Assembly: GCA_020629955.1 (NCBI GenBank)
Contig: JAHDCI010000001.1
Span: forward strand, 11,646-75,645
DNA: 64,000 bases
Origin: Myxococcota bacterium
GTDB taxonomy: Bacteria; Myxococcota_A; Polyangia; Polyangiales; Houyiibacteriaceae
Reading direction: 5' to 3'
The translations under genes and the position numbers were made by a program. A model generated the notes under the pieces. It was not told the DNA's origin. It saw only the letters and a program-made list of their open reading frames with translations, and searched no databases. Shown here in pieces: positions 7,948-63,970 of this stretch. Numbering within the stretch: the stretch's first letter is position 1; each line of letters starts with the position of its first letter.

Positions 7948-9732
7948 ATGCACGACCTCTCACCTCGTCTACCCATTATGAGCTTGAGTTCCCCAATGCT
8001 TCGTTCCCTTCTTTGTGCATCCCTTGTTCTTGCGATGGCGTGTGGCGGCTCGCCCCGGCGCGTGCGCCCCAACGGACAAGGGCAACAAATCACTGGTCCT
8101 GTCGGCGGGACCCAAGTCACGGGTCCCTCTGCTCCGACGGGCGCTGTGGGCACCCCGCGTGAACGCCTTGAGCGTGTCGAAGCCTTCATGACCCAAAACG
8201 GCTACAACCGAGTGGGCCCCGCGATTCACAACAACAACGCGATGCAGGGTTCGTTGATCGCCTACGCTGTCGATCCCCAGCCGGGCAACTGCTACGTCGC
8301 CGTGGCCGTCGCTACAGAGCAAACCGATCTCAATCTCTTTGTTCTCGACCCAGCGGGCCAAGGCCTCAACCACGACGTCCTCGCGAATGAAAGCCCTTGG
8401 GTGCAGGTCTGTCCAACGACCCCTGGGCGTCATATCGTGCGCCTTCAGATGCTGCGTGGAAACGGTGAATTCTACTACGCGCTCTACCAGGGGCCGCAGG
8501 GTAGCTCACCTCAACTCGCGTCCGTGCTGAGCGGGGGAAGCCCCGCCGCCATCAACGAAGCGCCTGTGGCCCAAATGGCCGAAATCGACGCAGAAACCCA
8601 GGGACGCCTGATCCAGATGGACGAGGCGCTGAGCCGGTCGCGATATCGTCGCGTCGGCGAGCCGGAAGGGATGATTCGCGCCGCAAACGAAGACTATATT
8701 CGCGAGCTTAATCTACAGCAGGGCGTTTGCTACGCCTTTGCGTCGCTCGGCGGTCCGGGCACGCGAGACACGGATTTGACGCTTCGCAATCAGCAAGGCG
8801 AGACCTTGGAACAGGACCGCGGCACGGACATCGATGGCCGGATTCAGTTTTGCCCAACGCAGGGCGGACGCTACTCGCTCGTTGCCAACCTCTACAGCGG
8901 AAATGGACCGGTCTTCGTGGCGGGCTGGGTACAGGAAGCCCAGTCGGCGCAGCCCCAAAACAACAATGGTCAGGTGATGGGCAATACCTCCGAGGGAGAG
9001 ACCGTCGATCAGCGCTATGCGCTTACGGATGCCGATATGCAGGCGCGCGGCTACGAGAGCTACGGAGAGCCCGTACGCGGCAGCCTCGGCTCCGGCCAAA
9101 ACCGTGAGTTCCCAATCGAACTCGAAGGTGGCAAGTGCTACGCGATCGTCGCGATTGGTGCGAGCTCCGTACGCAACGTCGACCTCGCACTGCATCAGGG
9201 GAACCGTTACCTCGACCGCGAGGTCGCCACGGACTCCCGCGCCATCGTGCGCGTCTGTGCGGAAGACACCGGCACATACTCGATGCAGATGACAATGGCC
9301 GAAGGGGAAGGCGCATTCATCTATCACGCCTACCGATGGCCACGCGGAACCCGCGGTCCCTTCGGGCTCGCCGGCCTCATCTACGTTCGGCTCGGAGAGG
9401 TCTCCGGGCTCCTCGGGGTGGATGGCTACGAACCCGATCTGAACATCGACCCAGATCGCGGGAGCCTCCGCCGCGAGGGGATGAGCGCGTCCCATCGTGT
9501 GCCTCTCCAGCAAGGGCAGTGCGTCGCGATCGCCGTCGTCGGCGGCGATGGTGTCCAGGATCTGAATGCGCAGCTCTCCCGTGGCGGTCAGCTCGTCGCC
9601 GGCGATGACTCGCGCAACGCCTCTCCGACCATTCGATACTGCGCGGAGGCGGCGGGCAACTACGACCTCCAGGTACAGGCCGCGGCCGGACAGGGAGACT
9701 ACTTCTATCAGGTCTTCTCCCGAGGACAGTAG
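7948..9732 (+). CDS. Secreted lipoprotein built of four tandem beta-sandwich-like repeats of about 120-130 aa (pre-peptidase C-terminal/PPC-like pattern)
   Basis: It has a signal peptide and lipobox (LVLAMAC GGS). Four internal repeats each contain G-x-C-(Y/V)-x-(V/F/I)-(A/V)...D(L/T)(N/D)L...(V/F/Y)C....G.Y pairs: GNCYVAVAVA, GVCYAFASLG, GKCYAIVAIG, GQCVAIAVVG. Confidence 0.7.
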   Translation: MHDLSPRLPIMSLSSPMLRSLLCASLVLAMACGGSPRRVRPNGQGQQITGPVGGTQVTGPSAPTGAVGTPRERLERVEAFMTQNGYNRVGPAIHNNNAMQGSLIAYAVDPQPGNCYVAVAVATEQTDLNLFVLDPAGQGLNHDVLANESPWVQVCPTTPGRHIVRLQMLRGNGEFYYALYQGPQGSSPQLASVLSGGSPAAINEAPVAQMAEIDAETQGRLIQMDEALSRSRYRRVGEPEGMIRAANEDYIRELNLQQGVCYAFASLGGPGTRDTDLTLRNQQGETLEQDRGTDIDGRIQFCPTQGGRYSLVANLYSGNGPVFVAGWVQEAQSAQPQNNNGQVMGNTSEGETVDQRYALTDADMQARGYESYGEPVRGSLGSGQNREFPIELEGGKCYAIVAIGASSVRNVDLALHQGNRYLDREVATDSRAIVRVCAEDTGTYSMQMTMAEGEGAFIYHAYRWPRGTRGPFGLAGLIYVRLGEVSGLLGVDGYEPDLNIDPDRGSLRREGMSASHRVPLQQGQCVAIAVVGGDGVQDLNAQLSRGGQLVAGDDSRNASPTIRYCAEAAGNYDLQVQAAAGQGDYFYQVFSRGQ

Positions 9733-9892
9733 CAGGCTGGCGAAAAACGTCCGAAACCGCTTCGCGGCATTTTCACGCACTCAAACGCCATCCAATTTTC
9801 GCCAGGTATGTGGAATACGAGTCCAAAAATCGGACGCATCTGCGTACGCCAAAATCCAACGAATCACAATCGGCCCTTTTTCACCACCCTGC
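9732..9892 (+). mobile_element. MITE-like 161-bp element with terminal inverted repeats, copy 1
   Basis: The 5' end GCAGGCTGGCGAAAAACGTCCGAA matches the reverse complement of the 3' end GCAGGGTGGTGAAAAAGGGCCGAT at 19/24 positions. TA dinucleotides flank both ends (9730-9731 and 9893-9894). Homologous copies lie at 29454-29609 (-) and 63151-63311 (+). Confidence 0.6.
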
Positions 9893-10139
9893 TAGGCTCG
9901 GAACCCGTCTCTTTCGCGTTTTCGCGCCCCGGCACCAGTCATGGTTCGGGCGCGCGGCAACGCTATGATTTTACTTCACTTTCATCTATCATCGAAGCAC
10001 CTCGCACCTCTTCGCGAGGGTGTGATTACTGGACATCGACCAAGACCGACCCCAATTGGGTAGATAAGCCTGAGCTCGGAGAAATCCGCCGACCGATCGG
10101 CGCTCTCTCCTCCCGCGAAGGCCCGATCAAGGAACACGA

Positions 10140-10463
10140 ATGAAGCACGTTATTGAGCACGACCTCGATATGGAAACCGCGAAGCTCGCGGCCGATAAAG
10201 CGTACGAATCTTACCGGGAGCGCTTCGCGAAATATCAGCCCACCGCAAACTGGGCCAGCGATCGGCACTGCGATGTCACCTTCACCGTGAAGGGTGTGAC
10301 GCTCGAGGGCAGCATCGATCTCGAGCCGAACAAGGTTCTCATGGACCTCGACGTTCCGCTCCTCTTTCGCCCATTCAAAAAGCTCGCGATGGGCATCGTT
10401 CAGGAAGAGATCGACACGTGGCTCCAAAAGGCGCGCCGCGGAGAACTGAAGGCCGAGGAGTAG
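10140..10463 (+). CDS. Small protein resembling the putative polyhydroxyalkanoic-acid system family (PHA_gran_rgn-like)
   Basis: It is 107 aa. The pattern (I/V)EH.L..E.A...A.K..E.Y..RF....P...W..D...V.F.V.G....G.I.L....V.MDL.VP.L..PFK is as I recall it for that family. It has an AAGGAA RBS. Confidence 0.45.
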   Translation: MKHVIEHDLDMETAKLAADKAYESYRERFAKYQPTANWASDRHCDVTFTVKGVTLEGSIDLEPNKVLMDLDVPLLFRPFKKLAMGIVQEEIDTWLQKARRGELKAEE

Positions 10464-10561: not shown

Positions 10562-11695
10562 CTATCGAGCGAAGGTCATCCGGAATTCGAGGGTTCGCGG
10601 CGGAGGCGGAGGAAGACGCCAGCCTCGGCTCCGCTGCGTCAAACAATTCGCGATGCCAGAATCCCCGGTCGTGTTTCGCGCGGGCCGCGCCGACGCGATG
10701 CGGCCATCCTCATGGAGAACAAACGCCATCACAATACTTCCACTGAGACCGGGAACGCGCGCGTCCGCTTGATCGAAACAAGTCTGAACGTCGCCCACAT
10801 AGCGAGTCGCCACCAGGCGGCGCGCGGAGCTCGCATACATCACTCCCGTCTGTGACGAGCCGACGCCGCCAGCAGGGGGCACGGTCGGTGCCGGCGGAGG
10901 TTCACTCGTCGGCTCCGGTGCGGGGCGCCCTTGCCAAGGGGGAGGAGGCGCGCTCGGCTCGGGTGCGGGGCGCTGAGCCGGCTGCAGCGGGGGAGAAGGT
11001 TCGACCCCTTGGGGCCGCGTGGGTCGTGGGCTCACCTGCCGCCGGGAAGTCATTCGCGTGGGGCGCATGGAAGAGACCCGTGGCTCCTGAATTTCCGTGG
11101 GGGAAGGCTCCTGAACATCCTCCGAAGATGTATCGTCAGCGCCCGGCGGAACCACTCCTTCGGGCAGGACCGATTGCTCTTCTCTTGCTGGGAGTTCGTG
11201 CATCGCTTCATGTTCTGCCGCCGGCGCGATCTCGCCGATCATCACCGGCGCCCCAGGCTCCGCATTCCCCACGACCCTAGGTTCGGCCTCCGAGAGAAAC
11301 CACATTCCGGCGGCACCAAGCGCGACGAGCCCCGCCGCGGCGAGGCCCATCCACGTGTAGACCTTTTTCGCACTCGTAATGCCTGCCATCGCCATCGTGC
11401 GATTGCCGACAGCACGCGACGAACGAACGGCGACCATCTGCTGAGACATCCTCGCGGCACGCGCAGGATCCGCGAACTCCTCGACCGGCCCAATCCCCAA
11501 GGGTGAGGGCTGAGGCCGTATCGTTTTGGTATGCGCGATGAGTCCGCTCCCGCACTGTCCACAAAAGCGCGCGTAGCCAGGATTCTCCGTGCCGCAACAA
11601 TCACATCTCACGCCTGTTATCATGCCCGTCTTTGAACGCCCCGTCACTACAGGTGTCCCGCGGCCGCCGCGTTGCCCTTCAGCCCAGTTCCTCAT
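10562..11695 (-). CDS. Zinc-ribbon / TM / Pro-rich / TonB-C-like (AgmX/PglI C-terminal domain) envelope protein, GltJ/AgmX-like architecture
   Basis: It has an N-terminal CDCCGTENPGYARFCGQCG zinc ribbon, one TM helix (WMGLAAAGLVALGAAGMWFL), a Pro-rich spacer, and a C-terminal two-Cys domain (VQTCF...GSIVMAFVLHEDGRI...IANCL...WRLPPPP). The start is ambiguous: the ATG at 11695 has GAGGAA-N9 upstream, and the alternative ATG is at 11623. Confidence 0.75.
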   Translation of the reverse strand: MRNWAEGQRGGRGTPVVTGRSKTGMITGVRCDCCGTENPGYARFCGQCGSGLIAHTKTIRPQPSPLGIGPVEEFADPARAARMSQQMVAVRSSRAVGNRTMAMAGITSAKKVYTWMGLAAAGLVALGAAGMWFLSEAEPRVVGNAEPGAPVMIGEIAPAAEHEAMHELPAREEQSVLPEGVVPPGADDTSSEDVQEPSPTEIQEPRVSSMRPTRMTSRRQVSPRPTRPQGVEPSPPLQPAQRPAPEPSAPPPPWQGRPAPEPTSEPPPAPTVPPAGGVGSSQTGVMYASSARRLVATRYVGDVQTCFDQADARVPGLSGSIVMAFVLHEDGRIASARPARNTTGDSGIANCLTQRSRGWRLPPPPPRTLEFRMTFAR

Positions 11696-11769
11696 CGAGG
11701 GCAGTTCCTCATCGAGGGCAGTTCCTCATCGAGGGCAGTTCCTCATCGAGGGCAGCTCCTCATCGAGCG
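11685..11769. repeat. 17-bp tandem repeat x5 (CAGTTCCTCATCGAGGG; the last unit is degenerate)
   Basis: Direct reading shows units starting at 11685, 11702, 11719, 11736 and 11753. Each unit contains the small inverted repeat CCTC-ATC-GAGG. Confidence 0.9.
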
Positions 11770-11840
11770 CGGTTCTCATCCAGCCCACGTTCTGATCCAG
11801 CGGGGCTTCGCGTCCTCGTGCTATTCTGTCCCCACTTGAG

Positions 11841-12662
11841 ATGGGATGGTCGAGTACAGCGAAGTGGCCGAGTCGAGGGTCCGAAGACGGTCCCTTTCGA
11901 TCGGACGGGCTGATCGCAGAAACGAAGCGATTCCGGCCAGTCCGCGCCGGAGGAAGCGGTTACTTTAAACCCACTCGGATTGCACTCTCAGAGCGCTGTC
12001 TATTTGCCGAAGTCCAGAACGAAATCCGCATGGTCGAGCGCCACCGCGTGAGCGGGTTCGCAACGCATCGGGGCTTCGTCTGGATTGCAATCACGGATGC
12101 AGAGTTCCTGCTAGTTCCCGCGCGATCCACCAAGCGATTTCAGAAGGCCTTAGGCCAGCCGAGTGAGGCGTCCAATACCGAGCCCGCCGGCGCAATCTGG
12201 ATTCTACTCGGATTGCTTGCGATGGCCGGAGGCGTGGCGTGGAGAATCTTCGCGGACACTCAAGGCCTCGGGTCGGCGATCGCCCAGTTGCTACTCTGCC
12301 TAAGTCTTCCGATCGCCCTGCTCTTTCAACCCCGGTGGTCAAGCTATTCGAGATGGGGCGTGCTGTCCTATCGAGGAATCCTCCGTGGGGACCCGCTCGC
12401 GATCCCTCGCTCGGAGATACGAAGCATCACGCAACAAGCGGAGGTCGACCGAGTAAACGTGCCGATTTACCTCGTCAAAACGAAGCAGGGGCAGACCGTT
12501 CTCGGACTCGGAACCCGCAAAGACCTCCTCGATCCAAGTCTCGAAACACTGGGAGAAAAGGCGGCAAAGGTTCTGGATGTCCCCTTCACGCCCTCGTTCT
12601 CCCCGCGCCCCGATCCCCCGTCGAACGTTCACCGCGACATCCACACCGACATCCATCGGTGA
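11841..12662 (+). CDS. Hypothetical membrane protein (two central TM helices)
   Basis: The long ORF has coding-like composition. The TM segments are AGAIWILLGLLAMAGGVAWRIF and AIAQLLLCLSLPIALLF. I recognised no motif, and the start is uncertain. Confidence 0.5.
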   Translation: MGWSSTAKWPSRGSEDGPFRSDGLIAETKRFRPVRAGGSGYFKPTRIALSERCLFAEVQNEIRMVERHRVSGFATHRGFVWIAITDAEFLLVPARSTKRFQKALGQPSEASNTEPAGAIWILLGLLAMAGGVAWRIFADTQGLGSAIAQLLLCLSLPIALLFQPRWSSYSRWGVLSYRGILRGDPLAIPRSEIRSITQQAEVDRVNVPIYLVKTKQGQTVLGLGTRKDLLDPSLETLGEKAAKVLDVPFTPSFSPRPDPPSNVHRDIHTDIHR

Positions 12663-27523: not shown

Positions 27524-29203
27524 TCACATATTCCACGGGTCGAGGTTATCCGAACGCGAACCACCTCGCATCGGACTTGCCGTCTCCATCGGGGTCGGCG
27601 GAGGTGGCTCTTCGACAACCGGCTGACGACGCATGCCAGGGCGACGGCGCATTGCCCCGGATACCGTCTCAGCACGCTGCAAGGTCACGCTGAGCTCACC
27701 TTCTCGGCCCACCAGCGCAATCTCGCGAGTATCGTATCCCTCGAGCGAGATCTCCGCGGCCCATCGTTCGCCTTGGGGAACATCCACAACCGTCGGTGTG
27801 TCCCCGTAGTCCATCCCGTCGACGGTGACGCGAGCGCCTGCGGGCTCACTCCGAATGCTAACTGCACAACAATCGCCGGCAGCTTCCGGTTGTGGAGCCG
27901 CGACCGGAGCTTCGGGTTCTTCATTGCCTGCGGACTCATTGACGGTGACCTCGGGCTCTGGCTCTGCCTCCACCTCGCCCGTCTGCGACGCGACAATGAC
28001 TCCGACGAGACCGAACGCCAGCACGATCCCAAGAACAGCGGCGAGCTTTAACCAACCCGCCTTCGCTGCGCCGGACGCCTCGGAGGCGTCCGCCGGACGC
28101 ATCGATTTTGGGCTCCCGGCGATGGTCGGCGAACTCGGGCTCGCTGTGCTCGGTACGGGAATCGGAGCCCGAGGCACCGGCCCCGATTGACCGGAGAGGC
28201 TCGGGGAACTCGAGCTTGCAGAGGGCAACGAAGATGCTCCGACGCCGGTCTCCTCGGGACAGCGGACGAGCGCGTCGACAAGCGCAGACATGCTCTCGAA
28301 ACGTTCTTCTGGCGCCTTCCGAAGGCAGCGCATGATGACATCCTGCAGCTGATCGCTCGCAGAGGTAACAACCACGGAATCAATCCGCGGCGGTTCAACG
28401 TTCACATGCGACGCCATCAGCACAAACTTCGACTCGGATTCGAAGGGCGGTCTTCCGGCGAGCAGATGGTAGAGCACCGCCCCGAGAGAGTAGATATCTG
28501 CGGCGGGAGTCACCGCGGTCGAGGCGATTTGCTCCGGCGCGATATAACGGGGCGTACCGAGAACGGCGCCACTCTCCGTAAGATCGGAGTCGTGCCCTTT
28601 GACGAGGCCGAAATCCAGAACGGTCACGTAGTCGTCGTCGGCGCCGCGCGATGTGAGCATGATATTTCCGGGCTTCACGTCACGATGCACCATTCCGTGG
28701 GAATGTGCTTCGGCCAAGGAGCCGCAGATTTGCAACGCGATGTGGACAACGCGGGCCGGGTCGAGTGGAGCGAAGGCGCGAATCTCCTGACTCAGCGTTC
28801 GCCCCTCAAGGAGCTCCATCGCGATGTAGAAGATTCCCTCTTCGGCCTTCCCATAGTCGTAGACCACAACCGAGTGCGGGTGAGTCAGCTTCGCGCACGC
28901 CGCCGCTTCGAGGAAGAACCGTTTTTCAAAGTCCGCGGCCGCGTCGCCCGAGGCGAGGTTGCTATCGAGCACCTTCAGCGCAACAGCGCGACCGAGCGGA
29001 CGCTGAATGGCGCGATACACTCGACCCATACCACCACGCGCGAGCATCTCGACGACTTCGTATTTGCCATCGAGCACATGTCCAAGGAGCGGATCTCGCG
29101 TGAGTGATGAGGGACTCGGCACGGCTGCGATCAGCACTATACCCCCGAATGGGGGACGAACGTAACGTTTTTGCCTTAATTCACCATAACCGGGATCCAT
29201 CAC
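27524..29203 (-). CDS. Hanks-type Ser/Thr protein kinase with a TM helix and an extracytoplasmic PEGA domain
   Basis: The kinase motifs are GGMGRVYRA, VALK, HRDVKPGNIML, DFG and GTPRYIAPE. A TM helix (LAAVLGIVLAFGLVGVIV) follows. The C-terminal VSIRSEPAGARVTVDGMDYGDTP is a PEGA motif. Confidence 0.9.
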   Translation of the reverse strand: MMDPGYGELRQKRYVRPPFGGIVLIAAVPSPSSLTRDPLLGHVLDGKYEVVEMLARGGMGRVYRAIQRPLGRAVALKVLDSNLASGDAAADFEKRFFLEAAACAKLTHPHSVVVYDYGKAEEGIFYIAMELLEGRTLSQEIRAFAPLDPARVVHIALQICGSLAEAHSHGMVHRDVKPGNIMLTSRGADDDYVTVLDFGLVKGHDSDLTESGAVLGTPRYIAPEQIASTAVTPAADIYSLGAVLYHLLAGRPPFESESKFVLMASHVNVEPPRIDSVVVTSASDQLQDVIMRCLRKAPEERFESMSALVDALVRCPEETGVGASSLPSASSSSPSLSGQSGPVPRAPIPVPSTASPSSPTIAGSPKSMRPADASEASGAAKAGWLKLAAVLGIVLAFGLVGVIVASQTGEVEAEPEPEVTVNESAGNEEPEAPVAAPQPEAAGDCCAVSIRSEPAGARVTVDGMDYGDTPTVVDVPQGERWAAEISLEGYDTREIALVGREGELSVTLQRAETVSGAMRRRPGMRRQPVVEEPPPPTPMETASPMRGGSRSDNLDPWNM

Positions 29204-29453
29204 CAGGATTCGCGCCCTCGCACAATCCTTCGCAATCGCAAGGAAAGTTCTCTTCGCTCACATCCGGCCTGCATTCTCGCTCAGACAACTTCCCTTACGT
29301 TTGCGAAATCTTGCACGACCATCACGAGGCTCCGGATGAAGAAGACTGCTTATCTCTGGCGAAGCTTCAAACGCCCAAAAACAACTTCGCGATTTTTTTC
29401 CGTGCGCACCCCAATTATCCAGCGGCTTCACAGATGGGAACGTTTGGATGCGA

Positions 29454-29609
29454 GCAGGGTGGTGAAAAAGGGCCGATGTTGGTTCGTTGGATTCTTCGTG
29501 CCCAGATGCATCCGATTTTCGGAACGTGACGGGAACTGGGTGGCGCTGGATGGCGTTTGAGTGGGTGAAAATACCGCGAAGCGGTTTCGGACGTTTTTCA
29601 CCAGCCTGC
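29454..29609 (-). mobile_element. MITE-like TIR element, copy 2 (156 bp, inverted orientation)
   Basis: Its reverse complement aligns with copies 1 and 3. The first 63 nt differ from copy 1 at 3 positions, the central 35 nt or so are divergent, and the TIRs match 20/24. Confidence 0.6.
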
Positions 29610-29616
29610 CAGACGC

Positions 29617-29648
29617 AAAAACGCGCTGGTTCCAAGGAACCAACGCGT
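29617..29648 (-). terminator. Rho-independent terminator of rplC
   Basis: On the minus strand, a 13-bp stem with one mismatch (ACGCGTTGGTTCC / GGAACCAGCGCGT) is followed by TTTTT. It lies 23 nt after the rplC stop. Confidence 0.65.
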
Positions 29649-29670
29649 TGAATGGTTGCTCGCTGGTGGT

Positions 29671-30330
29671 TTAAGCGTTGGCCTTCTTGGCCTTCTTCGC
29701 CGCCTGGCGAATCGTGACGACGCCGCCGCGCGGTCCGGGGACGCTGCCCTTCACCATCACGATGCCTTCTTCGTCCATGACCTTGACGACCTTCAAGCTC
29801 ATCACGGTGACGCGCTTGTTGCCGTGCTGGCCGGCCATCTTCTTGCCCTTGAAAACACGACCGGGCGTCATGTTCATACCGATGGAGCCGCCGTGACGCT
29901 GGTACTCGTGCGCACCGTGCGTGGCCTTGTAGCCGGCAAAGTTGTGGCGCTTCATGACACCGGTGAAGCCGCGACCCTTCGAGGTGGCGCAGACGTCAAC
30001 GAAACCGCCTTCTTCGAAGATCTCGCTCGCCTTCAGCTGCTGACCGACTTCGTACCCGTCGACCTTCTCGGCCGGGAGGCGGAACTCACGAACAACTTCC
30101 GGGACGCCCGCTTCAACGTGGGAGAACTGACCGGCGACGGGACGCGTCGTGGTCTTCTTCACACCGAATCCAAGCTGGATCGCGGAGTAGCCGTGCTTCG
30201 CGACGGTGCGCTTGCCGACGACGGTGCAGGGGCCCGCTTCGACCACGGTGACGCGACGAATCTCGCCGTCGTCCGTGAAAACCTGGGTGTTGCCGACTTT
30301 TTTGCCGATGAGTCCGAGTGACGTGTTCAC
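29671..30330 (-). CDS. rplC: 50S ribosomal protein L3
   Basis: The translation GLIGKKVGNTQVF...TSKGRGFTGVMKRHNF...GSIG.N.TPGRVFKGKKMAGQHGNKRVTV is a canonical full-length L3. Confidence 0.95.
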   Translation of the reverse strand: MNTSLGLIGKKVGNTQVFTDDGEIRRVTVVEAGPCTVVGKRTVAKHGYSAIQLGFGVKKTTTRPVAGQFSHVEAGVPEVVREFRLPAEKVDGYEVGQQLKASEIFEEGGFVDVCATSKGRGFTGVMKRHNFAGYKATHGAHEYQRHGGSIGMNMTPGRVFKGKKMAGQHGNKRVTVMSLKVVKVMDEEGIVMVKGSVPGPRGGVVTIRQAAKKAKKANA

Positions 30331-30465: not shown

Positions 30466-31266
30466 TCAAGCCGATTCTTCGATTCCAAAGATTCGGCATG
30501 CGTTCGCGTACGTCTGGGCGCGCAATTCTTCAGGATCTTCGCCGCGCAGCTTTGCGACGAAATCCGCGGTGTGCGCGACAAACGCGGGTTCGTTCCGTTT
30601 TCCGCGAAGCGGCATCGGGGCAAGATAGGGCGCGTCGGTCTCGACAAGAATGGAATCCGCCGGCTGCTTTCGCGCCGCCTCCTGAATCGATTCGGATTTC
30701 TTAAACGTCACGATTCCAGAAAAACTCGCCACAAAGCCGAGATCCAGAGCCGCCTTTGCGAACTCGGGGTCCTCGGAGAAGCAGTGGATAATCCCGCCAA
30801 CGTCGCGCGCGTTTTCCTCGCGAAGAATTTCGAGGGTATCTGCCGCCGCATCTCGGGTGTGCACAATGATCGGCTTCTTGACGTCGCGCGCGAGCGCGAT
30901 CTGGCGCCGGAAGACTTCCTTCTGCTGCTCGCGTGGGCTGTTGTCGTAATAAAAATCGAGCCCCATCTCGCCGATGGCCACGCAGAGCGGGTGCTCCGCA
31001 ATCTCCTCGATGCGCGCGTAGATCGCTTCGCCATCTTCCTCGGTGAGCGTCTCGGCGTCATGCGGGTGAAAACCGATCGTGGTGCAAATCCAGTCCGCAT
31101 TGGCTTCGGCAATCTTCAGCGCCGAATCCACCGAATCGAGATATCGCGCGCAGCCGATGGTCGCGATGCGCTTCACGCCCGCTTCTTTCGCGCGCCCGAG
31201 CAACTCGTCGAGGTCGTCGTCTTTGAACTTGCGATGGTCGAGGTGGCAGTGGGTATCGAAAAGCAT
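30466..31266 (-). CDS. tatD: TatD-family metal-dependent hydrolase/DNase
   Basis: The internal ATG gives MLFDTHCHLDH. Later motifs are AIGEMGLDFYY, PIIVHTRDA, GIIHCFSE and LVETDAPYLAP. Confidence 0.9.
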   Translation of the reverse strand: MLFDTHCHLDHRKFKDDDLDELLGRAKEAGVKRIATIGCARYLDSVDSALKIAEANADWICTTIGFHPHDAETLTEEDGEAIYARIEEIAEHPLCVAIGEMGLDFYYDNSPREQQKEVFRRQIALARDVKKPIIVHTRDAAADTLEILREENARDVGGIIHCFSEDPEFAKAALDLGFVASFSGIVTFKKSESIQEAARKQPADSILVETDAPYLAPMPLRGKRNEPAFVAHTADFVAKLRGEDPEELRAQTYANACRIFGIEESA

Positions 31267-31291
31267 GATGTCTATTTTTCCAGGCGGGCGT

Positions 31292-32314
31292 TTAGACCGC
31301 GTATCCCTTTTGCTTGAGTCGCTCGAGCGCGGATGCCGCGCCAGGTTCCACCTCGGCGATAGAAGCAAGCGTCTCCGCGAGCAATCGCGGGTCCGCCCCT
31401 CGCAAACGTTCACACAAACGGGCCAGCGCAGGCAGGAGCGCGACTCGCTGATACTCACCTGCCGCAGCGATCGCATAATCGCGACCATCGGCACGCCACG
31501 CTTTTAGCGCAGCGTTCAACGGTTCATCGCCTCGGGCGTCCCCAAGCTGCACCAGCGCCCGGCCACATGCCGCGCGAACGAGCAGAGAACCGAAGAACTT
31601 CGAGCCGCGATCGTAGAGCGCAGCTTTGCCGCGATCGCTCGCGACGCGTCCGAGAGCCTCCGCGGCTTCGATCGCCAAGAGTGGATGCGAGAGCCCGCGA
31701 ATCAGGCGAACTTCGCCTGCGTTATTTCCGAAGTAGGAGAGCGCAATCGCGGCGGCATTTGCGACCTCTTCATTTCCATCGGTCAGAGCTTTCTTGAGCC
31801 CCGTGACAATCGCATCTTTTTCGCCAGCCGTCTCGTGGTGCGCGAGTGCGAGACCATCGGCCGCAGCCGCTCGGACCCGGCCATCTTCATCCCGAAGCAA
31901 TTTGAGCAGCGCTTTCGCGTCGACGCTTTCTTCCTGGCGCCAGAGATCGGCCGCTTGAAAACGAAGCACAAAATCGTCGCTCGCAGCGAGCTCTGAGAGC
32001 ACGTCCGGACGCTTGCCTTCCGAGAGAGCGTAGAGCGCCCGCGCGGCCGATTGACGGACCTCCGCGTGCTCGTCGCTCAGTCCCTCCCGAACGAACGCCG
32101 GCACCCCGACCAGCGCCAAGCCTTCAAATGCCGCAGCTCGAATGGGACCGAGGCGATCTTTGGCGAGGGCTTCTAATCCGGCCCGCGCTTCTTCCTCGCG
32201 CCCTTCGGGTACCGCCGCGAGACCGTGCGCAGCGCGCAGACGAAAGTTCTCATCCTTGGAGGTGACATCCCGCAGCGCGGCGTCGAAGTTCGGAGTGAGC
32301 GGCCGAAAGAACAC
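31292..32314 (-). CDS. HEAT-repeat (PBS-lyase-type) protein
   Basis: Repeated helical-hairpin motifs with the (V/I)R..AA.AL pattern run throughout: RLRAAHGLA, IRAAAFEGLA, VRQSAARALY, VRAAAADGLA. Confidence 0.75.
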   Translation of the reverse strand: MFFRPLTPNFDAALRDVTSKDENFRLRAAHGLAAVPEGREEEARAGLEALAKDRLGPIRAAAFEGLALVGVPAFVREGLSDEHAEVRQSAARALYALSEGKRPDVLSELAASDDFVLRFQAADLWRQEESVDAKALLKLLRDEDGRVRAAAADGLALAHHETAGEKDAIVTGLKKALTDGNEEVANAAAIALSYFGNNAGEVRLIRGLSHPLLAIEAAEALGRVASDRGKAALYDRGSKFFGSLLVRAACGRALVQLGDARGDEPLNAALKAWRADGRDYAIAAAGEYQRVALLPALARLCERLRGADPRLLAETLASIAEVEPGAASALERLKQKGYAV

Positions 32315-32355
32315 CCTATTCTTTGGCGAGCGGGCGTCCGAAATGCAAGGAGAGT

Positions 32356-32865
32356 TCAGAAGGTATTCGGCGGACGCGTGACCAGCTCACAGATCGCGAT
32401 GAAGTCTTCCCGGTTAATAAGATTCACCTCGTCCAATCGCTCGGAGAGCGCCTGCAGCAGCGCTTGCAGATCCGCGCTTGCGATATGGTCATTGGGGCAG
32501 AGACGCACCGTGTCGCGCCCGGCGGTCTCCACGATGTACACCAAGTGCTCATCGTAAGAGCGATCGATCTCGCAACGTACCAGCGGGAAGTAGAGCTCTG
32601 TATCCCGCGCGCTCGGGAATGAGAGCGCTTCGCCTCGAATGACAATGCTACGCCTCGAAGCTGGGAAGTCCCGGAGGTATTTGTAAACGAGCCCGATGCC
32701 GCCAATCGCGAAGAGGGAGCCAAAACACACCCCGGCACCCTGGCCACCCGCGATCATGAAGCCGCCGACACAAACGAGAGGGACGAAACAGCCTGTCGGC
32801 ACTATCCACGACGGGCGCAGCACGTACGCTCGGGGCTCCGGCTCCGCTTGCAGATCTGAACTCAA
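32356..32865 (-). CDS. Small two-TM protein with a cytoplasmic domain of about 100 aa, paralog P1 (unknown family; C-terminus ...ICELVTRPPNTF)
   Basis: It has a TTG start. Two N-terminal TM helices are followed by a soluble domain. It is paralogous to 32957..33460 and, more distantly, to 33457..33999. Confidence 0.65.
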   Translation of the reverse strand: MSSDLQAEPEPRAYVLRPSWIVPTGCFVPLVCVGGFMIAGGQGAGVCFGSLFAIGGIGLVYKYLRDFPASRRSIVIRGEALSFPSARDTELYFPLVRCEIDRSYDEHLVYIVETAGRDTVRLCPNDHIASADLQALLQALSERLDEVNLINREDFIAICELVTRPPNTF

Positions 32866-32956
32866 AACGTCTGGAACCTTTCAGAGAGTCGGAGAGAACG
32901 CACGAAAGAACGCCCTTTCTCCTTTGCCGAGCGGGCGCCCGTAGCGCAAGGAGAGT

Positions 32957-33460
32957 TCAGAAGGTATTCGGCGGACGCGTGACCAGCTCGCAGATCGCGA
33001 CGAAGTCTTCCCGAGTAATGAATCGCTCCTCTTCGATGCGCCGTTCCATCCGCGTCAGGAGTTCCTTCAAACGTGACCGCGCCATGGTGGAGTTCGGCGT
33101 AATCGAAACTTGCTGGCGGCCGGCGGTTTCGATGACGAACTGAAACCCAGAATCTCCGGCGTAGCGCTCACATCCAACGAAGGGAAAGTAGAGCTCGACG
33201 CCCTCTGCCCCAGGCAACGATGCCGATATCTCCGAGACAACGATCCTTCGCTTTCGCGGGAGGTATTCCGACACGAAGCGGAAAGTGAGATACGCCCCGC
33301 AGAGCAGAGCCGGTCCCGCAAAGCAGAGAATGCCTTCCGCGAACCAGGCCAAAAACACAGAGGCCGCGATCAGGCCGAAGGTGACAAACGCCGGCAATGT
33401 CCACGACGAGCGCAGGACATACGTTCGGGTCGCTTCTTCTTTGGAAACATCTGAACTCAA
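32957..33460 (-). CDS. Small two-TM protein, paralog P2 (C-terminus ...ICELVTRPPNTF)
   Basis: Its TTG start overlaps the TGA stop of P3 (TTGA). It has the same architecture as P1. Confidence 0.65.
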   Translation of the reverse strand: MSSDVSKEEATRTYVLRSSWTLPAFVTFGLIAASVFLAWFAEGILCFAGPALLCGAYLTFRFVSEYLPRKRRIVVSEISASLPGAEGVELYFPFVGCERYAGDSGFQFVIETAGRQQVSITPNSTMARSRLKELLTRMERRIEEERFITREDFVAICELVTRPPNTF

Positions 33461-33999
33461 AACGTCTGTGGCCTTTTCGAAAGCCGCGACTCGAGGATCC
33501 CTTTGACGGCATCGTAGTCGAGCGCCTCTCCGCTATCGAAGAACGCCTGCAGCTCCGCGAAGATTCCCCGTAGCGAGTGACAGGTCGAACTAGCGGAGAC
33601 CTCCGCTTCTCCGACGGGTCCCGTCATGAGAATGGTCTTGCGGGTTCCAAAGCCTTCGACTTCGATGCTCTTGATCGGGAGGGAAATCGACGCGTTAACC
33701 TCCTTCGGAAACTCAAGCGCCTTTTCGGTAAGTCTCACCTCCCGCTCTCTCGGGAGCGATCGATAAAGCCCCATCATGGCGAAGTGAGCGCCGGAGATCG
33801 CGAGCGGGAGCGATGCGATTAGCAGCGCGGCACTCCAAGGCATTGCAAGGTCGCGCACATCCCAGAAGCCCCAACCCACCAACGGCAAAATGGCGAGACC
33901 TGAGAGGCAAATACGGTCGAGCGGCAGAGGGAGTAAAAACGTCTTCGCCTTCGCCGCTCTCTTCGGCATCTCCCCCTTCGTCGCGTCCCCTCCTCGCAT
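33457..33999 (-). CDS. Small two/three-TM protein, distant paralog P3 (C-terminus ...SKRPQTF)
   Basis: It has the same size class, N-terminal TM helices, and a C-terminal RP-x-TF end. It is translationally coupled to P2. Confidence 0.6.
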   Translation of the reverse strand: MRGGDATKGEMPKRAAKAKTFLLPLPLDRICLSGLAILPLVGWGFWDVRDLAMPWSAALLIASLPLAISGAHFAMMGLYRSLPREREVRLTEKALEFPKEVNASISLPIKSIEVEGFGTRKTILMTGPVGEAEVSASSTCHSLRGIFAELQAFFDSGEALDYDAVKGILESRLSKRPQTF

Positions 34000-38526: not shown

Positions 38527-38986
38527 GCGAAGGCAGGTCGCACCGAGCCTCGTTTTGCTTGCAACGTTCGCCCTCGGTGGGCTCTTCGGTGCAGGCATCT
38601 CGCGTTTTGCCCAGCAGTCCGTGCACCGGGAGCCGCGCAGGGCGCGAAACCCGTTCCCCGTTCATGAGCTCGACCTCAGCGCCGAGCAGCGAGAACGGAT
38701 TCGCGAAATCATGGAATCACATCGACCGGAAGTGCAGGCGATCTTACGGGAAAGCCGCCCAGCCATCGAAGCGATCAACGAGCAGGTGCTGCGCGAGATC
38801 CGCGAGGTCCTCACCGATGCGCAATCTCGCGAGCTTGATCGCCTTCGCTCTCTGCGACCTCCTCCCGGACCACACGGGGGCCCGCCACCGCACGGCGGCC
38901 CACCACCGCACGGCGGCCCGCCACCGCACGGCGGCCCGCCACCGCACGGCGGCCCACCACCGCACGGCGGCCCGTCACCCTTCTGA
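38519..38986 (+). CDS. Periplasmic Spy/CpxP/ZraP-like (LTxxQ-type) protein with a C-terminal (HGGPPP)x6 tail
   Basis: The ATG at 38519 overlaps the anti-sigma stop. The signal anchor is VAPSLVLLATFALGGLFGAG. LSAEQRERIREIM and LTDAQSRELDRL are LTxxQ-like motifs. Six His-Gly-Gly-Pro-Pro-Pro units sit at the C-terminus. Confidence 0.7.
   Translation: MTKRRQVAPSLVLLATFALGGLFGAGISRFAQQSVHREPRRARNPFPVHELDLSAEQRERIREIMESHRPEVQAILRESRPAIEAINEQVLREIREVLTDAQSRELDRLRSLRPPPGPHGGPPPHGGPPPHGGPPPHGGPPPHGGPPPHGGPSPF
38873..38980 (+). repeat. 18-nt in-frame tandem repeat x6 (CACGGCGGCCCRCCACCG) encoding HGGPPP
   Basis: Direct reading shows units starting at 38873, 38891, 38909, 38927, 38945 and 38963. Confidence 0.9.
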
Positions 38987-39102
38987 AGATGTCGGGCGCC
39001 AAATACTTTTGCGAGTTTCGACCTAACACTTCTCGTAATGAAACAGTCTTCTTATCAAACATTGTTTAAGGAAGTCTTAAACAAGATAACGGAAGACTCA
39101 TC

Positions 39103-53418: not shown

Positions 53419-53495
53419 CGGGGCGTAGCGCAGTTTGGTAGCGCGCACGGTTCGGGACCGTGAGGTCGAAGGTTCAAATCCTTTCGCCCCGACCA
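53419..53495 (+). tRNA. tRNA-Pro (anticodon CGG), CCA encoded
   Basis: I folded the cloverleaf by hand. The acceptor stem is CGGGGCG/CGCCCCG and the D stem is GCGC/GCGC. The anticodon stem CACGG/CCGTG carries the loop TTCGGGA. The T arm is GAAGG-TTCAAAT-CCTTT, with discriminator A plus CCA. Total length is 77 nt. Confidence 0.9.
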
Positions 53496-61586: not shown

Positions 61587-62384
61587 GTGAATCAGTCCTA
61601 CTTTCGTTCAGATGAGCTAGCGCCCAACGCCGAAGGTCGATGGGAGGTCGAGACCACTCCCTTTTCCCGCGGCCCATGGCATCCCGATTTTTGCCACGCG
61701 GGACCACCATCGGCGCTGATGGTTCGGGCGGCCCAAGAGCTTGGGAGTTTTCCGTCGGTGCAGCGCGCAACATTCGACGTGCTCCGCCCGATCCCCCTAG
61801 GAGCGCTGATCGTCACGGTCCGAAAGCAGAGCGATTCCCGTAGCCTCGAGCGCTGGGAGGTCGAACTCTTGAGCGCCGAGCGCGTTTGCATGCGAGGCAC
61901 GATTCTCCTCGCCTCATCAAATGAAACCGAGGGGCTCCCCGATCCGGCTCCGTCGCCTCTACCGAATGACTCGGCTCCGCTGGAATTCCCGTTCAACACG
62001 GCGGACGAGAGCTATATGCACGTCGTTGAACTGCGCGCCGCGCGGGGAAAAATCGGGGACGGGGATATGTTCTGCTGGCTACGTCCCAGCGCGAGCTTAC
62101 TCGCCGGTGAATCCACGCTTCGGCCCACCGACCGCGTCTTCGTGTGCGCGGACGCATCCAGCGGCGTGGGCGCGCGCCTCGACTGGAAGACCCACTCCTT
62201 CGTAAACGCGGATCTCAGTGTCTCGCTCTTTCGCGAACCGGAGGGAGATTGGCTCGGTCTTGAGGCGAAGACCTACGCGGGCGCCGGTGGCCGAGGGCTC
62301 ACCAGCACGACACTCTTCGATGCGAGAGGCCCGGTCGGAGCGTGCATGCAAGGATTGGCGATTCGGAGAGTCCGCTCGAAGTAG
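61587..62384 (+). CDS. Acyl-CoA thioesterase-like (double hot-dog, TesB/4HBT_3-like) protein
   Basis: The motifs CHAGPPSALMVRAA and the C-terminal FVNADLSVSLFREPEGDWLGLEA...LFDARGPVGACMQGL match the family layout. The start is placed at an in-frame GTG, since there is no ATG near the domain start; it remains uncertain. Confidence 0.55.
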   Translation: MNQSYFRSDELAPNAEGRWEVETTPFSRGPWHPDFCHAGPPSALMVRAAQELGSFPSVQRATFDVLRPIPLGALIVTVRKQSDSRSLERWEVELLSAERVCMRGTILLASSNETEGLPDPAPSPLPNDSAPLEFPFNTADESYMHVVELRAARGKIGDGDMFCWLRPSASLLAGESTLRPTDRVFVCADASSGVGARLDWKTHSFVNADLSVSLFREPEGDWLGLEAKTYAGAGGRGLTSTTLFDARGPVGACMQGLAIRRVRSK

Positions 62385-62455
62385 GCCATCGCGGCTTACC
62401 ATCGAGGCGTCCTGAAATCGCGACAGCGAGCACAGGCGTGCGCTATCCTGGTGAA

Positions 62456-63151
62456 GTGAAACGCTTCCTTTTCATTCTCACGCTGTTCGTACCTCTTGCA
62501 GCTGGCTGCGGCGACGACGACGTGCGGCGATGCAACTCCCCCGCAGATTGTGACGGGGATCGATGCTTTAACGGACTGTGTGTCCCCGACGAAGCGCTCC
62601 CCGACGCTTCGGCGGAGGACAGCGGACAAGACGCCGGGATGGACGATGCCGCAGTCAACGATGCCGCAGTCGACGCGAGCGCAGATACTGGCGGGGGAGG
62701 AGATGCGGCAATCGACGATTCTGGCACCCAAGACGCCAACACGGAGGACGCCAGCACCGAAGACGCCGGCGCCGGGGACGCCGCAATGGACGCGGAAGTC
62801 GACGCAGGTCGAGACGACGCCGCACCCACCTGTCCGAACATTCTCGGAACGTGGAGCGTCTGCGATCATCCTTCGTGCGCTGCGGCACAATGCTATGCCG
62901 ACGAAGTCGAGATCATCACCGATTCGCGCAGCCCGTTTGAGTGCGGCTTCCGCGTCACGGCGGATGGACGTCCAGCCGGACCGAACGTTGCCGGCGCGTT
63001 CGGCACCGACGATGGCCGAATGTTCGAGGAAAACGGCATTCTGGTCGATGACCAAAGCTGTTCGTCGATTTCGCGACCGGAAGACGACGCACTCGAAATC
63101 ACCAGCTGCGGCGGGGGACGTGGCTGCGGCGTTCGTCTCGTTCGGTTCTAG
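62456..63151 (+). CDS. Acidic Cys-containing lipoprotein (hypothetical)
   Basis: The GTG start gives VKRFLFILTLFVPLAAGC GDDD (lipobox). A D/A-rich low-complexity linker follows, then a C-terminal domain with conserved Cys. Confidence 0.6.
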   Translation: MKRFLFILTLFVPLAAGCGDDDVRRCNSPADCDGDRCFNGLCVPDEALPDASAEDSGQDAGMDDAAVNDAAVDASADTGGGGDAAIDDSGTQDANTEDASTEDAGAGDAAMDAEVDAGRDDAAPTCPNILGTWSVCDHPSCAAAQCYADEVEIITDSRSPFECGFRVTADGRPAGPNVAGAFGTDDGRMFEENGILVDDQSCSSISRPEDDALEITSCGGGRGCGVRLVRF

Positions 63152-63311
63152 CGGGCTCGTGAAAAACGCCCGAAACCGCTTCGCGGTATTTTCACGGACT
63201 CAAACGCCATCCAACTCTCGCCACGTATGGACAACACGAGTCCAATCATCGGACGCATCTGTGCACGCCAACATCCAACGAATCAAAATCGGCCCTTTTC
63301 CTACAGCTGAC
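63151..63311 (+). mobile_element. MITE-like TIR element, copy 3 (161 bp)
   Basis: It aligns with copy 1 over its full length, and both are 161 bp. TA flanks lie at 63149-63150 and 63312-63313. The right TIR is degenerate. Confidence 0.6.
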
Positions 63312-63313
63312 TA

Positions 63314-63970
63314 ATGCTTCCAAGAATCCTTTCGACGATCGCGATCACGGCGCTCTTGCTCCTCTCCGGCTGCAGTGAGAACGCGGAGGCAAGCGCCAGC
63401 CAAAGCAGCGCAAACCATCCGGCGCAGGTCCACATCAACCTCGACGATCCGCAAACGCTCTTTACTTGGTACGACGAAGACGGGCCGCATATCACGGAAT
63501 CGCGAGAAACAATTCCGGAGGCCCACCGCGCCCGCGTCCGAGTCGATTCCCTCGCCCTCTCCCCGGAGGACCGAGATCCGGGTGTTGTCTACGTGGTTGA
63601 TCTTCGCGTCGCGGAGCCTGAGATCGAAGCGGTCGACCGAGAAGCATTTGATGCCCTCCTCGCTCCCGAAGAGCCTGCGGCGACAGAGCTTCCCACCGAA
63701 CCACAGGAGCTCGCTCAGAATTCGAGCGATGTCACCATTTTCGGAGCGTCCTGGTGCGGAGCCTGTCGGCAGGCCAAGGCGTATCTGCGGTCCCGCGATA
63801 TCGATTTTGTCGAACGCGATGTCGAAGAGGAGCCCGGCGCTCGAGCGGAAATGCAGCGACGGGCGCGGGAAGCCGGCGTTCGGGTAAGTGGCATCCCCGT
63901 GATCGATTTCCGCGGGACCATCTTAAGCGGGTTTAACCGCTCCGCGATCGATCGACTGGCCGGTTTATGA
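63314..63970 (+). CDS. Lipoprotein with a C-terminal glutaredoxin-like (CxxC thioredoxin-fold) domain
   Basis: The lipobox is ALLLLSGC SEN. The C-terminal VTIFGASWCGACRQAKAYLRSRDIDFVERDVEEEP...GIPVIDFRGTILSGF matches the glutaredoxin family pattern. Confidence 0.75.
   Translation: MLPRILSTIAITALLLLSGCSENAEASASQSSANHPAQVHINLDDPQTLFTWYDEDGPHITESRETIPEAHRARVRVDSLALSPEDRDPGVVYVVDLRVAEPEIEAVDREAFDALLAPEEPAATELPTEPQELAQNSSDVTIFGASWCGACRQAKAYLRSRDIDFVERDVEEEPGARAEMQRRAREAGVRVSGIPVIDFRGTILSGFNRSAIDRLAGL

Follow-up and report, generated by a model that had tools for sequence, protein, structure and literature searches.

The window analyzed here, a 64,000-nucleotide stretch of contig JAHDCI010000001.1, contains a dispersed repeat of approximately 160 bp in three copies (Table 1). 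Copy 1 lies between a PPC-domain lipoprotein gene and a polyhydroxyalkanoate (PHA)-granule-region gene, copy 2 between rplC and a Ser/Thr-kinase/PEGA gene, and copy 3 occupies the entire gap between the TAG stop of a second lipoprotein open reading frame (ORF) and the ATG of a glutaredoxin-domain gene. All copies are intergenic and are situated between co-directional genes. Direct reading of the window confirmed the coordinates and sequences of the three copies as they had been given in an initial annotation of this DNA, and an nhmmer profile of the element gave no further significant match in the window. A 26-nt core of the element was found three times in the window at no more than one mismatch, against 0.00 occurrences expected from shuffled sequence. 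The initial annotation had placed every copy immediately 3' of a gene. Copies 1 and 3 do begin at the stop codon of the upstream gene, while copy 2 begins 61 nt past the rplC stop and behind an intrinsic-terminator-like hairpin which lies outside the element (a U-tract, UUUUU, after a 13-bp stem; -27.7 kcal/mol, z = -4.0), so that co-transcription of copy 2 with rplC is doubtful. The element has the same orientation as the gene in all three cases, which is not significant (P = 0.125 when one direction is specified, 0.25 when both are allowed).

In a three-way alignment the copies were homologous between sharply defined limits that coincide with the proposed termini, and no relation was seen between their flanks. 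Pairwise identity over the full length was 73-84%. It was highest across the initial 65 columns (89-92%), lower over the final 62 columns (76-85%) and lowest in the centre (40-74%); the central 35 columns of copy 2 were merely 40-46% identical to copies 1 and 3. The GC content of the copies is 52-56% in a genome of 61% GC. Terminal inverted repeats (TIRs) mark the precise limits of the repeat unit, and homology between copies stops there. The termini read GCAGGCTGG... and both ends begin with G (GCAGG... and the complement of ...CCTGC). The two TIRs of copy 1 are identical at 19/24 positions, and only 3 of 200,000 random 24-mer pairs from the window reached at least 19 matches; the corresponding values were 20/24 for copy 2 and 14/24 for copy 3, where the 3' TIR is degenerate. 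The inverted symmetry goes beyond the TIRs of about 24 bp in the earlier description, the element being an imperfect palindrome over its entire length. Copy 1 aligned with its own reverse complement at a score of 125 compared with 0.7 +/- 12 for shuffles, and its reverse strand matched the element profile at E = 1.7e-13. No start codon or ORF was conserved between copies and the six-frame peptides of all three copies, searched as a concatenated query against 5.8 billion proteins, returned nothing at E <= 0.01, in agreement with the earlier statement that the element has no coding capacity. A weak element-like motif (CCCAAAAACAACTTCGCGATTTTTTTCC; nhmmer E = 0.22) was also observed at 29356-29404 (+), 50 nt from copy 2 and in the opposite orientation, and could be an older insertion remnant or a chance match.

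The dinucleotide TA, which makes up 1.7% of the dinucleotides in the window, was found at four of the six flanks of the three copies (P ~1e-6 for at least four of six). Flanking by TA on both sides, as originally proposed, therefore holds for copies 1 and 3 and, in the window, fails for copy 2. At copy 1, where the TA of the stop codon had been suggested as the target site, removal of the element together with one TA yields ...GGA CAG TAG GCT, with the stop codon unchanged in identity and position. The same operation at copy 3 yields TTCTAATGC (...CGG TTC TAA TGC...), a TAATG stop/start overlap of two adjacent genes which extends the suggestion to a site that the initial annotation had not considered. 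Such an overlap is a very common arrangement of translationally coupled neighbours. Removal of both TAs would lengthen the ORF at copy 1 by approximately 55 codons (hand translation); in the 594-residue protein the PPC domain extends to residue 578. These reconstructions indicate that the ancestral insertion sites most probably held exactly one TA, as a TA target-site duplication (TSD) predicts. A 3-bp duplication (TAG) was rejected as it fits copy 1 alone. The probable target sites are GTAG, CTAA and CTA?, with TA insertion consistent at two of the three. Because both ends of the element start with G, a TAA or TAG stop is restored as TAG whichever way round the element enters its TA, and the protein is unaffected without special targeting. 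By a rough count the window contains ~26 TAA/TAG stops and ~202 intergenic TAs, and the placement of two of three insertions in stop codons is only mildly unexpected (P ~0.03).

Using exact proteins flanking the copies we located the same loci in the Logan assemblies of three runs (SRR14415273, SRR14415274 and SRR14415275). All eight contig ends that reach a copy break off after 27-56 nt of element sequence (Table 1), the behaviour of a de Bruijn graph that branches at a multi-copy repeat. The shared 30-mers required for such branching are absent from the other two copies of the window, and we infer that additional copies must exist elsewhere in the genome. In practical terms the repeat fragments short-read assemblies of the host, which matters for the quality of metagenome-assembled genomes. 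The first 37 nt of copy 3 in contig L093 are identical to the window. In the SRR14415275 strain one non-synonymous single-nucleotide polymorphism (Thr to Ala) was observed in the lipoprotein gene upstream of copy 3 (L093:5786-6074 compared with window 62900-63188), indicating that closely related strains coexist across the three runs.

Outside these assemblies an exact pattern of a 21-nt core gave no match in 185,579 species-representative genomes, and a combined TIR and core pattern gave none in viral contigs. Four pattern matches in Joint Genome Institute (JGI) metagenomes were all due to chance, with no similarity beyond the pattern. A blastn search with copy 1 (distant mode) found no match among 72,556 plasmids. 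When the element profile was run with nhmmer over all 95 loci collected (1.25 Mb) it matched only Logan contigs of the same organism. As far as the searched collections show, the family is restricted to the host lineage. The initial annotation had not recognised the sequence as belonging to a described repeat family, and no match was obtained in Rfam or in the genome, metagenome, viral, plasmid or protein collections.

Small size, lack of coding capacity, TIRs, TA flanks, multiple copies and a full-length foldback together constitute the anatomy of a bacterial miniature inverted-repeat transposable element (MITE). We consider it probable that the repeat represents an undescribed MITE family, non-autonomous and dependent on a DDE transposase that acts in trans and duplicates TA, perhaps one of the IS630/Tc1-mariner type; the family would be new, its general kind well known. 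The repeat with its TIRs, TA flanks, palindromy and stop-codon junctions, the lack of an RNA-family match and the multi-copy behaviour in assemblies were observed directly; transposition, TA duplication, the family of the transposase and any effect on RNA are inferred. The element would be a non-coding deletion derivative or foldback of ~160 bp whose ~24-bp termini would be bound and cut by a DDE transposase, the gene for which would lie at another place in the genome. This enzyme would excise the element and paste it into a TA dinucleotide, duplicating the TA. As TA is rare in a 61% GC genome and insertions within genes would be lost, the TA of TAA and TAG stops would be among the few tolerated targets, and the terminal G at both ends would rebuild TAG at the same codon in either orientation with the protein unchanged. 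After insertion the element would be carried passively. Transcribed with the upstream gene, as may be the case for copies 1 and 3, it would form a long imperfect hairpin which, by analogy with other repeats, may affect mRNA processing.

IS630-family transposases (IS630, ISY100) cut and paste into TA with duplication of the TA, and IS630 prefers CTAG (PMC2170065); the probable targets GTAG, CTAA and CTA? are compatible with this TA/CTAG preference. IS630/Tc1-mariner is most likely the parent group, and we do not class the element as an IS630 derivative. TA duplication may also hold for a few IS5-group elements, and a parent from the IS5/IS427 group is possible.

Several known systems have a comparable organization. 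RUP of Streptococcus pneumoniae is a TA-inserting MITE with IS630-Spn1-like TIRs and, like the present element, is small (107 bp), non-coding, TIR-bounded, intergenic and located at TA; a transposase of the IS630 family presumably moves it in trans (PMC2229807, PMC3049150). No sequence similarity between the two was found, and a partner insertion sequence with matching TIRs is known for RUP while none was found here; the present element is also longer (156-161 bp), GC-richer (52-56%), palindromic throughout and from a different host phylum. The Correia/NEMIS elements of Neisseria are comparable, with a length of 100-155 bp, TIRs of ~26 bp and a TA at either terminus; transcription together with adjacent genes is frequent, and RNase III targets the hairpin that the TIRs form in the RNA (PMC2229807). 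Their sequence is unrelated and again from another phylum, and no integration host factor (IHF) site or promoter motif was detected in our element. The ERIC/IRU and YPAL repeats of enterobacteria and Yersinia are likewise whole-length imperfect palindromes (~127-168 bp), found in transcribed intergenic regions beside gene 3' ends and proposed as modulators of mRNA stability (PMC2229807), but both are unrelated in sequence and YPAL lacks a terminal TA and produces variable 3-26 bp duplications. Correia/NEMIS, ERIC and YPAL are all co-transcribed, hairpin-forming repeats able to alter mRNA processing (PMC2229807, PMC3049150). The Stowaway MITEs known from plants and insects are non-autonomous and derive from Tc1/mariner transposons; similar features are a TA target-site duplication, a size of 80-250 bp and a full-length foldback (PMC3814204). 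They differ in being eukaryotic and in having identified parent elements.

A number of observations weigh against assignment to a MITE family. Neither an autonomous element nor a transposase was found among the ~50 ORFs scanned in the window, and no partner element was found there for the IS630/Tc1 origin initially proposed. The TIR shares CAGGnTGG..GA.AA with the inverted terminal repeat (ITR) of Himar1 (ACAGGTTGGCTGATAAGTCCCCGGTCT; sequence per PMC2553598), but the best alignment score of 6 ranked 2271 among the 127,944 28-mers of the window and this resemblance was rejected as non-significant. The flanks of copy 2 in the window are TG...TC rather than TA, and the self-complementary TA could belong to the TIR instead of being a duplication. 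No empty site was present in the three Logan read-set assemblies, where every recovered junction was filled, and none was found in relatives when sought via glutaredoxin-domain homologues, these relatives being ~50% identical and non-syntenic. No further copy turned up in the public collections beyond the contigs of the same organism. The copies diverge from one another by 16-27%, which means that activity was not recent or that subfamilies exist. A purely neutral relic does not predict a 5' third that is more conserved (89-92%) than the centre (40-74%). Finally, the copy number and flank statistics are based on three copies.

An unlikely alternative is that the repeat is a REPIN/REP-like or IS200/IS605-type palindromic element (PATE), which a Y1/HUH transposase (RAYT or TnpA) would move in single-stranded form. 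Its sub-terminal hairpins would then be recognised and the element inserted beside a short target that is not duplicated, and the TA, or CTAG/GTAG, would be a target or cleavage motif. The imperfect palindrome over the whole element resembles a REP doublet, the 5' arm has a conserved hairpin of its own (GTGAAAA...TTTTCAC) which is present in the minimum-free-energy fold of copy 3, and the end motif (G/CTAG...CTAG/A) recalls the GTAG of REPs. The intergenic position of every copy between co-directional genes also agrees with the RAYT-mobilised REPINs, which are hairpin-forming, palindromic and present in many copies. REPINs nevertheless have no TIR/TSD architecture, whereas the TIRs seen here are true TIRs extending to the very ends, and a single ancestral TA gives the best account of the junctions, which fit a TA duplication better. 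With 160 nt and 80-nt arms the element exceeds REPINs of typical size, and the Pfam scan of the ~50 window ORFs gave no transposase, Y1_Tnp, RAYT or TnpB domain, all matches being to ordinary cellular genes. Even less probable is a palindrome that is dispersed and bound by protein, such as an operator or a site for a nucleoid protein, or another non-mobile repeat spread by recombination; the TA flanks would then belong to the site. Dyad symmetry and a conserved 35-nt block would suit a binding site, and the element-confined replacement at copy 2 described below points to an exchange of sequence between copies by recombination. Typical operators are much shorter than this 160-bp element, its neighbours (the PPC lipoprotein gene; rplC and the kinase gene; the lipoprotein and glutaredoxin-domain genes) are functionally unrelated, and insertion, not regulation, accounts for the exact placement in stop codons.

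It is also rather unlikely that the repeat is a functional structured RNA or 3'-untranslated region (3'-UTR) module (a stabiliser, RNase target, small RNA or terminator-like element) maintained by selection and not by transposition. Copies 1 and 2 fold better than shuffles (-43.3 kcal/mol, z = -2.18 and -47.3 kcal/mol, z = -2.85, respectively), copies 1 and 3 begin at the stop codon of the upstream gene and the first 65 nt are the best conserved part. Good folding is however a trivial outcome of the inverted-repeat architecture and by itself no indication of an RNA function. The terminal stem has decayed in copy 3 (z = -0.64), where five of its pairs are broken without compensation, and copy 2 lies behind a terminator. 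The initial annotation had named a match to a structured RNA family with covariation as a finding that would speak against a transposon. Rfam at the gathering threshold detected only a tRNA in the window and nothing in the element, and a permissive scan of the locus (E <= 10) gave only a chance microRNA match (E = 3.9). RNAalifold on the three copies returned a penalising covariation term of +3.11 with a double change in one of 38 pairs, a comparison of low power with only three sequences. Promoter and terminator scans of the three loci revealed nothing above shuffles inside the element. Where co-transcribed as part of a 3'-UTR, as may be the case at copies 1 and 3, the element might affect mRNA stability or processing; given the decayed stem of copy 3, such a role is drawn by analogy alone.

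Copy 2 differed between the window and one of the read sets. Contig L085 from SRR14415274 is identical to the window over 1034/1034 nt, comprising the 3' end of tatD, rplC and the terminator up to the base before the element. Beyond that point (L085:1034-1089 compared with window 29555-29611) 7 of 55 element positions differ, including the flank, where an A replaces G so that the 5' flank of copy 2 reads TA in L085. The junctions of copies 1 and 3 in SRR14415274 are identical to the window. As four of the differences fall within 17 nt of unique flank, neither version of copy 2 is a k-mer chimera. An inverted copy was rejected as an explanation, since L085 has an end of the 5' type where inversion would have placed the 3' end in reverse complement. 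Ectopic gene conversion between members of the family, its tract covering no more than the element and the TA, accounts for the data most simply; a mixed population with two copy 2 alleles and independent insertions at the same TA are both possible. A bolder view, for which we see little likelihood, is that the family is active now or recombinationally dynamic and biased to stop codons, landing by preference in the TA of TAA/TAG stops and rebuilding TAG with its terminal G. Copies would also be swapped in an otherwise clonal population, and the family would thereby spread a conserved hairpin module of 35 nt (GTGAAAAACGYCCGAAACCGCTTCGCGGYATTTTCAC) that acts as a mobile regulatory cassette in 3'-UTRs. 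The allele replacement confined to the element is curious; the family as such would raise a new mechanistic question only if this replacement or a 3'-UTR function proves real.

The host is an uncultured, deep-branching bacterium, probably Myxococcota-like. Its rplC has no close relatives, the best identity among the 185,579 species representatives being 62%, and the glutaredoxin-domain protein adjacent to copy 3 is ~50% identical to proteins named Myxococcota, Sandaracinus and Polyangiaceae. If confirmed, the element would add a MITE family to this little-studied uncultured lineage and would illustrate how a TA-targeting element colonises a GC-rich, gene-dense genome via the TAs of stop codons, the stop being regenerated; at copy 3 the insertion would have split a TAATG-coupled gene pair.

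Table 1. Coordinates of the repeat copies, their termini and flanks, neighbouring genes, reconstructed empty sites and read-set contigs (window positions).
Feature	Position	Strand	Details
Copy 1	9732-9892	+	161 nt; nhmmer E = 6e-57
Copy 2	29454-29609	-	156 nt; nhmmer E = 2.7e-50
Copy 3	63151-63311	+	161 nt; nhmmer E = 1.5e-54
Copy 1 5' TIR	9732-9755	+	GCAGGCTGGCGAAAAACGTCCGAA; 19/24 identical to reverse complement of 9869-9892
Copy 1 3' TIR	9869-9892	+	partner of 9732-9755
Copy 1 5' flanking TA	9730-9731	+	first two bases of TAG stop 9730-9732, ORF 7948-9732
Copy 1 3' flanking TA	9893-9894	+	putative target-site duplication
Copy 3 5' flanking TA	63149-63150	+	first two bases of TAG stop 63149-63151
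Copy 3 3' flanking TA	63312-63313	+	directly abuts ATG at 63314
Intrinsic-terminator-like hairpin	29620-29649	-	between rplC stop and copy 2
PPC-domain lipoprotein gene	7948-9732	+	upstream of copy 1
PHA-granule-region gene	10140-10463	+	downstream of copy 1
rplC	29671-30330	-	upstream of copy 2
Ser/Thr-kinase/PEGA gene	27524-29203	-	downstream of copy 2
Lipoprotein ORF	62342-63151		upstream of copy 3
Glutaredoxin-domain gene	from 63314		downstream of copy 3
Reconstructed empty site, copy 1			GGACAGTAGGCTCGG
Reconstructed empty site, copy 2			GCGTCTAGCATCC or GCGTCTCGCATCC
Reconstructed empty site, copy 3			GGTTCTAATGCTTCC
Contig L085			junction after rplC (copy 2); stops inside element
Contigs L086, L087			junction before glutaredoxin-domain gene (copy 3); stop inside element
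Contigs L091, L092			junction downstream of copy 1; stop inside element
Contigs L093, L095			copy 3 5' junction; stop inside element
Contig L094			copy 1 5' junction; stops inside element

Other features of the window were recorded in passing. The rplC gene is isolated between a TatD-family gene (30466-31494, -) and the Ser/Thr-kinase/PEGA gene, with a strong terminator hairpin of its own and no recognisable S10 ribosomal-protein operon around it. A 17-bp unit (CAGTTCCTCATCGAGGG), the length of which is not a multiple of three, is repeated in tandem six to seven times at 11668-11792, around the 5' end of ORF 10562-11695 (-) and in the divergent region before ORF 11841-12662 (+). This array, inside which contig L091 terminates, may be iteron-like or regulatory. 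An 18-bp unit (ACCGCACGGCGGCCCGCC) is present in six tandem copies at 38851-38994, in an ORF region without a Pfam match, and would encode a short Pro/Gly/Cys-rich peptide repeat. A tandem duplication of ~600 bp at 32321-33486 (82-84% identity over aligned pieces of 38 and 120 nt) corresponds to adjacent paralogous ORFs of 167-169 amino acids (32356-32865, - and 32957-33460, -), neither of which has a Pfam match. The single tRNA gene of the window is located at 53419-53492 (+; RF00005, 67 bits).

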